Shown here piece after piece: positions 33,001 to 36,000 of a stretch of DNA of 64,000 nucleotides. Made by a program: the position numbers. Source of the DNA: an uncultured Nitrospiraceae bacterium. GTDB taxonomy: Bacteria > Nitrospirota > Thermodesulfovibrionia > Thermodesulfovibrionales > Dissulfurispiraceae. Each line of letters opens with the position of its first letter. Position 1 is the first letter of the stretch. The DNA lies in the NCBI GenBank assembly GCA_963705105.1, contig CAVPIW010000012.1, positions 288,001 to 352,000 on the forward strand. The letters are read 5' to 3'.

Positions 33001-36000
33001 CTTACAGTTGCGTACAAAAGGCGGGACGAAGCGCCTCAAAGCCTTGCTGAAGGCGACGATGAGCCTCGTCAGGTTCGTCATTCAGGATTCCCTCTTCGTG
33101 TCATCGATCATTGGTGTATAGACCGTCTTTCGTTCTGATACAGGAGTCGCCGCAGCAAGGTTTTCGGCGCATACGCCCCGCCTTTCCAAAAAACGTATGC
33201 AACGATAAGGATTATGCTAAGCTATGGAATAAAGGGCGGCTCCGGCGGCGATCCGGAGAGGATGAAGGACGTTTTGTCCCCAAGGTGAAAGACGCATGGC
33301 CTACGAGGTGCTCGACATATCCGGCGATGCGGGAATACGCTCCTGCGGTGCAGGCTTCGAAGAGGCCCTGGCGGAAGCCGCCGTCGGCATGTTCAGCCTC
33401 ATCACGGATATCGGTCAGGTCCGGGAGGTGCGCTCCATCGACGTGCACGCGTCGGCCGATACGCCTGAGGCCCTCGTCGTCGGTCTCCTGAACGATATGG
33501 TCTTTCACTTCGACACCTACGGTTTCATCGGCAGGAGAGTCGAGATCATCGACCGGGACCGGTCATCCATCAGGGCGAGGGTTTACGGAGAGGAATTCGA
33601 TGCCGAGAGGCATGAGAGCCGCCTCCTCGTCAAGGCTGCGACATTCCATGACATAAGGGTCGCAGATGCCGGTGACCACTGGGAGATTGAAGTCGTCTTC
33701 GACATTTAGGAGGTGCTGAGATGGCAACGGAGAAATTGAAGAGAATAGACGCCAGCAGACTGGAGGTCCCGAAGGATTACAAGCCCGGCATGAGAACAAG
33801 GGGCATCATCTATGTCGACAGGAAACTGGAAGAGCTGCTCGAAGCCGGGTCGATCGAACAGGTCGCCAATGTGGCGACCCTGCCGGGCATCGTCGGGCCC
33901 TCTCTCGCAATGCCGGACATACACACCGGGTACGGGTTCCCCATCGGCGGCGTTGCCGCCTTCGACCTCGACGAGGGGATCATATCGCCGGGAGGCGTGG
34001 GATACGACATCAATTGAGGAGTGCGGCTCCTCAGGAGCAACCTCACCCGCGACGAGGTTGTTCCGGGATTGAAGGGCCTCGTGGAGGTCCTCTACAACAC
34101 CATTCCGGCGGGAGTCGGATCAAAGGGAAAAATCCGGATCGACAGGGACGTGCAGAGGCGCCTGCTTGTGCGGGGCGCCCGCTGGGCTGTCGAGGAGGGG
34201 TACGGGTCGCCGGCGGACCTTGACCATACGGAATCGGGCGGCTGTATCGACGGCGCCGACCCGGACGTTGTGAGCGAAAAGGCCTATGAAAGGGGAAGGG
34301 CGCAACAGGGCACTCTCGGGTCGGGGAACCACTTCCTCGAAGTCCAGTATGTCGATGAGATATACGATGAGAAGGCCGCCGATGCCCTCGGGCTGTTTAT
34401 CAACGGTGTGACGGTCATGATCCACTCCGGTTCCCGCGGTTTCGGCCACCAGGTCTGCACCGATTTCCTGGAGGTCATGGAAAGGTCTGTCAGCAAATAC
34501 GGATTCGACCTTCCCGACCGTGAGCTCGCCTGCGCTCCATTCCGGAGCAAAGAGGCTCAGAGCTATCTTGCCGCAATGAGGGCGGCGGCCAATTATGCCT
34601 GGGCGAACAGGCAGTGCCTCATGCACTGGACGAGGGAAGCCCTCATGACCTTCTATAGCCGGTCCCCACGGGATCTCGGCATGCACCTCGTCTATGATGT
34701 GGCGCACAATATCGCGAAAGTTGAGGACCACATCGTCGAAGGGAAAAAGCGCAGTCTGATCGTCCATCGAAAGGGCAGCACCCGTGCATTTCCGCCCGGT
34801 CACCCGGAGCTGCCCGATGCTTACCGGAACACGGGACAGCCGGTCCTTATCCCCGGTGACATGGGCAGGGCTTCTTTCGTCCTCCTCGGCACAGGCCGGG
34901 CGATGGAGGAAACGTTCGGCTCCACCTGCCACGGCGCAGGCAGGGTGATGTCGCGCAACCAGGCGATCAGGCAGGCGAAGGGACGGGCCATCTGGCGTGA
35001 AATGGAGGACAGGGGCATCATCGTGAGGGCCGCGGGCCGGGGCATCCTGGCGGAAGAAATGTCCGAGGCATATAAGGACATCTCCGATGTCGTCGACGTC
35101 GTACACAATGCGGGCATATCGACGAAAGTGGCGAGACTGAGGCCGCTGGGTGTCGTCAAGGGATGAGAGACAGGCTGCGGATCGGGAAAATTCCCTATCT
35201 CAATCTTTTCCCCGTCTTTCGCGTGCTTCAGCGGGACTGCGACTGCTCCGCCTACGATTTTATCGAGGGTGTGCCGTCGCAGGTCAACAGGATGCTGAGG
35301 TCGGGTGAGATCGACGTGAGTCCTTCGTCATCCATTGAGTACCTGCGCAACCCCTCCCTGTACGAGATCGTCGAAGGCCATTCGATCAGCTCGAAAGGCC
35401 CGATCGGCAGCATCCTCCTTTTCAGTCGGCGGGACATCGCCGATCTGGGAGGCGTGAACATCACCGTCACCGCTCAGTCGGAGACGTCGATCGGCCTGCT
35501 CGCCGTCGTGCTGACTCAATTTTTCGGAATTGAACCGCCTCTGGAGATTTCTCAAAGACCGGAACGGTCCGATGCCGATGCATTCCTCCTCATCGGAGAC
35601 GACGCCCTCAGACAGAGGCGCATGATTGCGGACACGGGGGAGACGGGGGAGCGGTCCTGCCGGGGGTTGAAGGTCTATGACCTGGGAGAGATATGGTTCG
35701 AACGGACGGGTCTGCCTTTTGTCTTTGCCCTCTGGATCGCCCGGAGGGATGTGACCCGGGAAACGGGACCTGTCCGTGACCTCTATGAAAGATTTCTGGC
35801 GGACATGGAAAGGGTGGGCAGAACAGCCCCCGGTGAATTCGGGTCCCTTGCCGCGGAAGCCCCGCTCAGGGAACATATGGAAGAGTCGGAGATCGTCTCG
35901 TACTGGCGGCAGATCGACTACGGGCTCACCGATGAAAGCAGAAAGGGCCTCAGGCTCTTCAAGGAGTTCCTGGACAGGATCGGGTACCTTTGAGTCAGTG

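Follow-up and report, generated by a model that had tools for sequence, protein, structure and literature searches.

Does the TGA codon inside the rtcB gene of an uncultured Nitrospiraceae bacterium end the protein, or does it specify one of its residues? We address this for a window of 64,000 nucleotides (contig CAVPIW010000012.1, positions 288,001 to 352,000), along which all coordinates below are counted unless another contig is named. On comparative sequence grounds, the product of the gene is very probably a naturally occurring selenoprotein version of RtcB, the 3'-phosphate/5'-OH RNA ligase. A preliminary description of the locus had proposed the same reading, and it is now supported by the placement of the codon on the catalytic Cys98, by its conservation in orthologs with an open frame, by an RNA structure particular to the TGA forms and by a complete selenocysteine (Sec) machinery.

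The rtcB frame and its active site

The genes and codons concerned are the following.

33296..33709, + strand: Archease gene (RtcB activation factor), ORF of 137 aa with a full-length match to Pfam PF01951 (E 7.7e-33)
33721..35166, + strand: rtcB, a single frame; with the UGA (codon 99) included, it has 481 sense codons
34015..34017, + strand: in-frame TGA, read as selenocysteine (Sec99) and aligned with the metal-bridging Cys98 of P. horikoshii RtcB
35164..35166, + strand: terminal TGA of rtcB; it overlaps the start codon of the gene that follows, whose ATG lies at 35163 (ATGA)
35163..35993: ORF 3' of rtcB with a Pfam VitK2_biosynth match

From its ATG at 33721, the gene runs through a single in-frame TGA, in the context ...GGVGYDIN[TGA]GVRLLRS..., and after codon 99 stays open until the terminal TGA, so that the 481-codon frame described earlier stands, together with the archease placed directly upstream, which stops 11 nt 5' of the rtcB start codon. 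The product matches the Pfam RtcB family PF01139 over profile positions 1-426 of 426 (E 2e-176; 587.7 bits against a cut-off of 27) and, in a phmmer search of the PDB, P. horikoshii RtcB (1uc2, 4dwr) at an E of about 1e-180. A search of NCBIfam found no selenoprotein-specific RtcB model; RtcB models, including the intein-containing RtcB 'exception' models, were matched below their cut-offs only.

In the phmmer alignment, position 99 of the window protein falls on Cys98 of the 1uc2/4dwr chain, and D96, H204, H235, H329 and H404 are all kept, matching the P. horikoshii metal ligands Asp95, His203, His234 and His329 and the guanylylated His404. The part of PMC10630183 available to us describes Cys98, His234 and His329 as the ligands of one Mn2+ and Asp95, Cys98 and His203 as those of the other. 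The TGA thus lies, as had been claimed, at the codon of an active-site cysteine that binds metal, and indeed of the one that bridges both ions.

Gene callers see things differently. Translation table 11 divides rtcB into two ORFs (33721-34017 and 34021-35166), and its product appears in the protein collection as a 381-aa fragment. Taken at face value, such calls would make the TGA a true stop, leaving either a pseudogene or a 98-residue N-terminal peptide accompanied by a separately initiated C-terminal protein without the cysteine. Yet this rtcB is the sole PF01139 match in a genome that is 99.4% complete, and an RtcB lacking the cysteine would be ligase-dead, as Cys-to-Ala mutants are according to the same available part of PMC10630183.

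Conservation and spread of the TGA codon

A single base separates TGA from TGC or TGT, and this distance is all that speaks for a sequencing or assembly error. Against it, contigs from two independent DNA studies (X1, X2) span the TGA unchanged, as does a contig from at least one metatranscriptome library (X16, with 0 other letters); a second RNA-library contig (X15) also spans it, 2 of its 4 differences not being displayed. This evidence consists of contigs and attests the presence of the TGA stretch only; RNA libraries can contain DNA, and stretches of the gene that X15 and X16 leave uncovered carry no meaning. Because independent contigs bridge the codon unchanged, and with the same TGA in more than 100 other genomes, we regard such an error as a negligible possibility.

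Within the Thermodesulfovibrionales, RtcB was matched in 287 of 317 genomes (276 of 301 in the preliminary description), and among the 150 matches listed, 43 carry one in-frame TGA and 107 none; the earlier count of 45 is thereby revised, whilst the remainder are, as stated, free of TGA. No internal TAA or TAG occurs among these 150 matches. The TGA sits at the identical codon in all 43 TGA-bearing loci, extending the five of five first reported, and the stop-free orthologs fetched (23/23) have TGC (22) or TGT (1) there.

This pattern bears directly on the true-stop explanation. Against a true stop, TGA is the only stop codon found and its place is invariably the catalytic cysteine codon (43/43 here, and 28/28 in the order discussed below), and the 382 codons that follow stay open in seven families of the Thermodesulfovibrionales, at an identity of 72-80%. 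Neither does a separately initiated C-terminal protein find a start: among the 43 Sec forms the first ATG, GTG or TTG after the TGA lies anywhere from codon +2 to codon +100, a GTG at +2 is present in only 8 of them, and we found no conserved re-initiation codon. With no start codon conserved after the TGA, the split-gene reading is rejected for the Nitrospirota clade.

The codon is not a peculiarity of this order. RtcB genes with the TGA reach well past the Thermodesulfovibrionales, into Thermodesulfobacteriota, Acidobacteriota and others, at no fewer than 120 loci. In a Syntrophales-like order it is the majority form (44 of 46 full-length RtcB matches), located at the same codon in all 28 TGA-bearing loci among 30 fetched; two Cys forms of this order still carry the SECIS sequence, the expected trace of a replacement of Sec by Cys. 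A genome-wide pattern scan gave 80 loci, 67 of them with at least 95 open codons 5' and 378-383 open codons 3' of the TGA and a further 9 cut by locus ends. The TGA form of RtcB is widespread and not special to the Thermodesulfovibrionales.

The wider sample also holds what can be said for a true stop. Fragments of 379 aa beginning MRSGLSR make up 30 of the best 120 relatives of a class-B RtcB form, much as the window gene is annotated, and a Gemmatimonadales MAG contains a decayed rtcB copy with four in-frame TGA and no Sec machinery that we could find. Weighed against the fixed codon and the open downstream frame, these cases leave a true stop in the window gene very unlikely.

The putative recoding hairpin and the selenocysteine machinery

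If the UGA is decoded as selenocysteine, a signal should be sought in the RNA that follows it. Two hairpins come into consideration.

34029..34068, + strand: SECIS-like hairpin, identified from its fold, covariation, synonymous codons and statistics of spacing, loop and stem
34015..34033, + strand: small hairpin of which the UGA forms part (UGAGGAG-UGCGG-CUCCUCA), identified from its fold and conserved in sequence

The SECIS-like hairpin begins 14 nt after the UGA. Its lower stem (34029-34032 with 34065-34068) forms three of four pairs in the window sequence and is followed by a bulged A at 34033 and an upper stem of 11 bp (34034-34044 with 34054-34064), which starts 16 nt after the UGA and is closed by a 9-nt apical loop, ACCCGCGAC (34045-34053), 27 nt from the UGA. 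For the 60 nt that begin at the UGA, the folding energy is -29.6 kcal/mol in the window and -18.2 to -32.4 kcal/mol in Sec forms, as against -3.5 to -18.7 kcal/mol in Cys forms. Across the 43 Sec forms, 86.8% of cells are paired in this hairpin and 7 of 15 pairs show a compensatory change, values reached by 0 of 500 shuffles, whereas 21 Cys forms have 60.0% of cells paired and no covariation signal. The Sec forms have also settled on particular synonymous codons: CTC, for instance, occurs in 40 of 43, compared with TTA in 14 of 23 Cys forms. Unequal genome G+C may be a partial confounder of this contrast in codon usage.

The preliminary description counted two conserved hairpins, and only the second, the SECIS-like hairpin, is upheld by covariation. 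The first competes with the base of the second and is conserved in sequence, with 88.7% of cells paired, but it has no double-sided change, and every one of 500 shuffles attains its values. We dropped it as part of the recoding signal because it lacks covariation (0 compensatory pairs), and a function for it is doubtful.

How well does the main hairpin resemble a bacterial SECIS? The bSECIS model (PMC13188914, Fig. 2 legend) describes a loop of 3-9 nt, a stem of 4-16 bp, a G at loop position one or two, 16-37 nt between the UGA and the apical loop and an MFE of at most -7.5 kcal/mol. The window hairpin lies within these ranges for stem, loop length, spacing and energy, and departs from the model in its loop, which starts AC and so has no G at either of its two leading nucleotides. 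This departure is common in its clade: a loop G is present in 21 of 51 class-A (Nitrospirota clade) hairpins, versus 48/55, 3/3 and 9/9 in the other classes. In 50 of 51 Nitrospirota hairpins the loop does not exceed 9 nt; spacings are 26-30 nt and MFEs -17.0 to -30.5 kcal/mol (region folded from 12 nt downstream). These hairpins differ from the consensus in an unusually long stem and a variable, purine-rich loop, whilst the RtcB genes of other phyla conform to it in every point, their GGUC or GGUU loops lying 20-21 nt downstream of the UGA. Unlike the rtcB hairpin, each of the genome's four other SECIS elements has a small loop that begins with G, and a scan of window positions 33000-36000 against Rfam (release 15) returned no match at E up to 10.

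The machinery for decoding is complete, as previously reported: a tRNA-SeC lies at C6:789406-789503, and SelA, SelB and SelD are all found above curated cut-offs. Four other known selenoprotein genes of the genome contain TGA, namely SelD (one TGA), two Fdh-type genes and MvhD/FlpD. Among the Thermodesulfovibrionales, SelA was found in 42 of the 43 genomes with TGA-RtcB, the exception being 83% complete, and the six genomes without SelA identified among the matches listed all have Cys-RtcB. This co-occurrence is consistent with the use of Sec and discriminates only weakly, since SelA is present in 283 of the order's 317 genomes.

It is here that a different kind of decoding has to be weighed, in which the hairpin helps a standard tRNA (near-cognate Cys, Trp or Gly) to read through the UGA, with neither SelB nor selenium involved, to give an ordinary or low-yield RtcB. 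The absence of the loop G usual in SelB-bound SECIS elements, and the dissimilarity to the genome's own four, would suit such a mechanism, as would the record of Ca. Magnetobacterium casense MYR-1, in whose assembly an intact-looking TGA-RtcB occurs with no detectable SelA, SelB, SelD or tRNA-Sec. Against it stand the distribution of SelA just described and relatives in other phyla that pair the same UGA with a textbook GGU-loop SECIS. Moreover, TGC is one mutation away, would serve far better for cysteine, and has been reached repeatedly, with at least 18 state changes on the tree. We consider readthrough by a standard tRNA unlikely.

Mechanism, precedents and implications

Returning to selenocysteine as the preferred reading, we can sketch how the enzyme would be made and would work. 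SelB-GTP-Sec-tRNA(Sec) would bind the rtcB hairpin and deliver selenocysteine to the UGA in the A site, yielding a 481-residue RtcB in which Sec99 would bridge both metal ions in place of Cys98. Catalysis would presumably proceed as in Cys-RtcB: Archease-assisted guanylylation of His404 would come first, after which GMP would be passed from His404 to the RNA 3'-phosphate and attacked by the 5'-OH.

To our knowledge, no RtcB studied so far has a UGA-coded bridging ligand. The nearest known systems are the Cys-type RtcB enzymes that work with Archease (P. horikoshii PH1602, 1uc2/4dwq/4dwr; T. thermophilus TTHA1785, 2epg; human RTCB): the homology extends over the full length, the metal ligands and the guanylyl-histidine are the same, and an Archease gene adjoins rtcB in the window. 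They differ in the Cys98 codon, which is here a UGA with a recoding hairpin, such that the bridging ligand would be a selenolate.

What might be gained? As the equivalent cysteine is a known oxidation-sensitive weak point of RtcB, we speculate that the benefit of Sec99 is a fully ionised metal-binding chalcogen that can be recovered after oxidation. In human RTCB, the oxidation-sensitive active-site Cys122 is protected by PYROXD1, according to the available parts of PMC12263435 and PMC10630183. The weak point, a metal-bound chalcogen residue, would be the same in both cases; metazoans would shield it with a protein, and the bacteria considered here would change the residue itself. Formate dehydrogenase alpha (Mo/W) and the [NiFeSe] hydrogenases offer a precedent, as their Sec ligates the catalytic metal (PMC13188914). 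Here too Sec takes the position of a metal-ligand Cys, Sec and Cys forms both exist in nature, and the advantage proposed is a metal site shielded from irreversible oxidation. Unlike in those selenoenzymes, the metal in Sec-RtcB would be binuclear Mn2+, a hard cation, and the reaction a non-redox nucleotidyl transfer on RNA.

Sec has in fact been placed at exactly this position before, by engineering: P. horikoshii RtcB U98 was produced artificially in an E. coli host (UTu system, UAG codon, EF-Tu delivery), and the available part of PMC4150793 reports that a peptide bond close by was spontaneously cleaved. This weighs against the selenoprotein reading. A Sec form that is natural and conserved, by contrast, would point to a protein that is stable and of use.

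RtcB does not appear among the 119 prokaryotic selenoprotein families in the whole of Table 1 of PMC13188914 (2026), which includes the families of Haft & Tolstoy 2025 (PMC12013261). None of the terms 'RtcB', 'RNA ligase', 'splicing ligase' or 'PF01139' occurs in the supplements of deep-Sep (PMC12013277) or in those of Peng et al. 2016 (PMC5029168), and our searches of the open-access literature found no description of a natural Sec-RtcB. The preliminary description was accurate in saying that the published family list lacks RtcB; its further claim of a new selenoprotein family and first selenium-dependent RNA ligase holds as far as that table goes, the word 'first' being the outcome of negative open-access searches only. 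Perhaps the family went unnoticed in part because searches built on SECIS models may miss the non-consensus hairpin of the Nitrospirota.

A broader picture can be drawn, which we put forward tentatively and, taken as a whole, with more doubt than confidence. In several anaerobic lineages (Nitrospirota/Thermodesulfovibrionia, Syntrophales-like Thermodesulfobacteriota and Acidobacteriota), Sec could be the long-standing and predominant state of RtcB, providing a two-manganese centre that is bridged by a selenolate and withstands inactivation by oxidation or copper, against which Cys-RtcB depends on helpers such as PYROXD1. SelB of the Nitrospirota might have been recruited through a second, non-consensus SECIS, long-stemmed, with a bulged A and with a purine-rich loop that varies and lacks the G. 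The whole would form a large, overlooked selenoprotein family, without precedent both in RNA metabolism and in having Sec on Mn.

Public gene calls are wrong for these genomes, which are credited with truncated 'RtcB' proteins of 379-381 aa, and the annotation and selenoproteome counts of Nitrospirota, Thermodesulfobacteriota and Acidobacteriota consequently need correcting. Confirmation would make RtcB a widespread selenoprotein family missing from the catalogues, the first selenoenzyme of RNA repair or ligation and an example of selenocysteine on manganese in a non-redox enzyme, and would offer a natural Sec/Cys pair in which to study the oxidation sensitivity of the RtcB active-site cysteine.

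The rtcB frame and its probably recoded residue

The RtcB ligase gene, described in the preliminary description as a single 481-codon frame called as two genes, is indeed split by table 11 ORF calling (33721-34017 and 34021-35166), whilst the read-through protein matches Pfam RtcB over its full length (E 2e-176). The features of the locus are as follows:

33296-33709, + strand: Archease ORF (Pfam match), directly 5' of rtcB
33721-35166, + strand: rtcB, one frame of 481 sense codons, counting the internal UGA
34015-34017, + strand: the sole internal stop of rtcB, a TGA at codon 99, in the context ...GGVGYDIN[TGA]GVRLLRS...
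34029-34068, + strand: long hairpin shared by TGA forms: lower stem of 4 bp, then a bulged A and an upper stem of 11 bp, capped by a ~9-nt loop
35163-35993, + strand: next gene (Pfam VitK2_biosynth, MqnA-like menaquinone synthesis), its ATG overlapping the terminal TGA of rtcB (ATGA)

Archease is a known activator of RtcB, and its gene lies directly upstream, as had been claimed. The ATGA overlap of the rtcB stop and the next start suggests translational coupling within an archease-rtcB-mqnA-like operon. The internal TGA is bridged unchanged by contigs from two independent DNA studies and by one metatranscriptome-library contig, which excludes an assembly error as its source; a second RNA-library contig likewise spans it, with two of its differences not displayed. 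This rtcB is the only one in a genome that is 99.4% complete.

The structure of Pyrococcus horikoshii RtcB is matched with E ~1e-180, and residue 99 of the query aligns with Cys98, in agreement with the earlier placement of the TGA at this metal-binding position. According to excerpts of a 2023 review (PMC10630183), Cys98 ligates both the first Mn2+, together with His234 and His329, and the second, together with Asp95 and His203; replacement of the equivalent cysteine by Ala abolishes activity of RtcB from P. aerophilum, E. coli and human, and protein purified aerobically had the cysteine in an oxidised state. The equivalent human residue, Cys122, is described in part of PMC12263435 as oxidation-sensitive and shielded by PYROXD1. 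In the window's protein D96, H204, H235, H329 and H404 are all retained, the predicted recoding being confined to the bridging residue. An engineered U98 form of the P. horikoshii enzyme is said, in an excerpt of PMC4150793, to self-cleave, which counts against the Sec reading. The NCBIfam model of intein-containing RtcB aligns from residue 98 on (profile positions 578-961; residues 98-99 lie at 34012-34017) and, as Cys98 of the archaeal enzyme is, by the same excerpt, the junction at which its intein is spliced, the proposed Sec residue falls on a position where inteins are known to insert.

Beside this locus, the ORF list holds a 1388-aa ORF (36030-40209, - strand) that is sensor histidine kinase/receiver-like and continues into a GDSL-type motif (FGDSLSD); its final ~200 residues are Arg-rich and seem out of frame. 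What appear to be the other motifs of a GDSL lipase (GANDY, DDQHPT) lie in an overlapping 211-aa ORF in another frame (36030-36665). The division of motifs over two frames, together with the Arg-rich end, suggests a frameshift or sequencing error in 36030-40209.

Conservation within Thermodesulfovibrionales

By six-frame search, RtcB is present in 287 of the 317 genomes of the window's order. Among the 150 matches listed, 43 carry one in-frame TGA and 107 none, and neither TAA nor TAG occurs in frame. The single codon shared across orthologs that had been reported from fewer genomes holds throughout: the TGA occupies the identical position in 43/43 fetched TGA forms, spread over seven of the 13 family codes (f1, f5, f6, f9, f11, f12 and f13), and the 23 stop-free forms fetched have TGC (22) or TGT (1) there. 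Could the C-terminal part instead be a separate gene, started after the TGA? The first possible start codon lies anywhere from codon +2 to +100, a scatter that makes a split gene unlikely in this clade.

Folding of the 60 nt that start at the UGA gives -18.2 to -32.4 kcal/mol for the 43 TGA forms, and -3.5 to -18.7 kcal/mol with no common shape for the 23 Cys forms. Two conserved hairpins had been proposed to follow the TGA, and it is the long one that covaries: across 43 distinct sequences 86.8% of cells are paired and 7 of 15 pairs show both-side changes, 0/500 shuffles match any of five measures, and slid controls reach 39-57% paired. Laid on the Cys forms (21 distinct sequences), the same structure is 60.0% paired, which 482/500 shuffles attain. 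The small hairpin containing the UGA, conserved in sequence, shows no compensatory change and is therefore not counted in the signal. The f12 subgroup keeps a hairpin with its register shifted by one base, which argues for selection on structure, not sequence. Synonymous codons, too, are near-fixed in TGA forms and different in Cys forms (Leu CTC in 40/43 versus TTA in 14/23; Arg AGG in 40/43 versus AGA in 15/23), which could partly be an effect of genome G+C.

As previously stated, the genome encodes the Sec machinery (tRNA-SeC, SelA, SelB and SelD), and it has four more known selenoprotein genes with TGA: SelD, two of formate-dehydrogenase type, and MvhD/FlpD. Since SelA occurs in 283/317 genomes of the order, its co-occurrence with TGA-RtcB is a weak test; it is present in 42/43 TGA-RtcB genomes, the exception being 83% complete, and the six SelA-lacking genomes identified among the matches listed all have Cys-RtcB.

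Spread beyond the order and two hairpin classes

Scanning one genome per species with the degenerate pattern GY/FDIN-TGA-GV gave at least 120 loci, 80 of which were fetched. There are at least 95 open codons before the TGA and 378-383 after it in 67; nine are cut by locus ends, and the four exceptions comprise one chance match and three loci in which the frame meets another stop 86, 133 or 324 codons further on. Going by record titles, the 67 include Nitrospirota (18), Thermodesulfobacteriota (17), Acidobacteriota (12), 'Myxococcota' (5, titled 'Deltaproteobacteria bacterium') and one each of Binatota, Eiseniibacteriota and Pseudomonadota. In a Syntrophales-like order, 55 genomes around one Syntrophaceae genome, the TGA is found in 44/46 full-length matches and in 28/30 fetched loci, at the identical codon in 28/28. 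One genome of this order (G372) has two full-length RtcB genes with one TGA each (C1:2028931-2030361 and C1:160737-162167).

Outside Nitrospirota, the hairpin (class B) is short and GC-rich; its loop, GGUC or GGUU, lies 20-21 nt after the UGA, and it agrees with the consensus bSECIS model (PMC13188914) on every count. The Nitrospirota hairpin, the window's included, conforms to the model as regards the lengths of stem and loop, its spacing of 26-30 nt and its energy, but has a G within the first two loop positions in only 21/51. The window's own loop, ACCCGCGAC, has none there, and the other four SECIS of the same genome have small loops, all G-first. For this clade, the missing G is the point at which the Sec reading is internally weakest; the non-consensus hairpin could equally represent a second mode of SelB recognition.

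The other two of the 30 loci fetched from the Syntrophales-like order are Cys forms (TGC; L227 in G374, L234 in G364) that retain a class-B SECIS, ATGCGCTCAGGTCTGAGCCGC or a near variant, and these 'fossils' point to recent Sec-to-Cys replacement. A Gemmatimonadales MAG (G321), in which SelA, SelB and SelD were not found, has an RtcB copy with four in-frame TGA (L118, C3:2892-4202), which looks like a decayed relic of Sec-RtcB, and a second RtcB-family gene (C10:124599-125762). Against the Sec reading stands a genome with the record title Ca. Magnetobacterium casense MYR-1: its single RtcB looks intact and has one TGA, at the codon for Cys (L150; G320, C10:46027-47322), and its 3.4-Mb assembly yielded no SelA, SelB, SelD or tRNA-Sec above threshold. 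The assembly could be incomplete, the gene could be a pseudogene of very recent origin, or UGA could be read in another way.

Evolution and place among selenoprotein families

A FastTree phylogeny was built from 185 RtcB proteins (118 TGA and 67 Cys forms), leaving out loci whose open frame spanned <90 codons upstream or <370 codons downstream, duplicate peptides and four-fifths of the stored database proteins. It separates, with full support, a Nitrospirota clade (51 TGA, 47 Cys) from an other-phyla clade, and requires at least 18 state changes. With midpoint rooting, TGA forms make up all the early branches of the Nitrospirota clade, and the Cys groups are nested within it; as the pattern scan yields TGA forms only, sampling is biased, and we treat an ancestral Sec as a lead and not a result.

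RtcB is absent from the 119 families and subfamilies in Table 1 of the 2026 review of prokaryotic selenoproteins (PMC13188914), as had been noted, and 'RtcB', 'ligase' and 'archease' are absent from its main text. The supplements of two large screens, deep-Sep (PMC12013277) and Peng et al. 2016 (PMC5029168), do not mention RtcB, our full-text literature search found no natural Sec-RtcB, and NCBIfam release 20.0 holds no Sec-specific model. The window's product is listed in the protein collection as a 381-aa fragment; of the best 120 relatives of a class-B form, 30 are entered as fragments of 379 aa under the name 'tRNA-splicing ligase RtcB', and a selenoprotein name is given to none.

The observation behind the proposed natural Sec form is thus confirmed and its reading supported: the gene is predicted, with high confidence, to encode a selenocysteine form of RtcB. 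Most likely, this RtcB is a member of a large Sec/Cys family not yet catalogued, in whose Nitrospirota clade the hairpin departs from the consensus SECIS.
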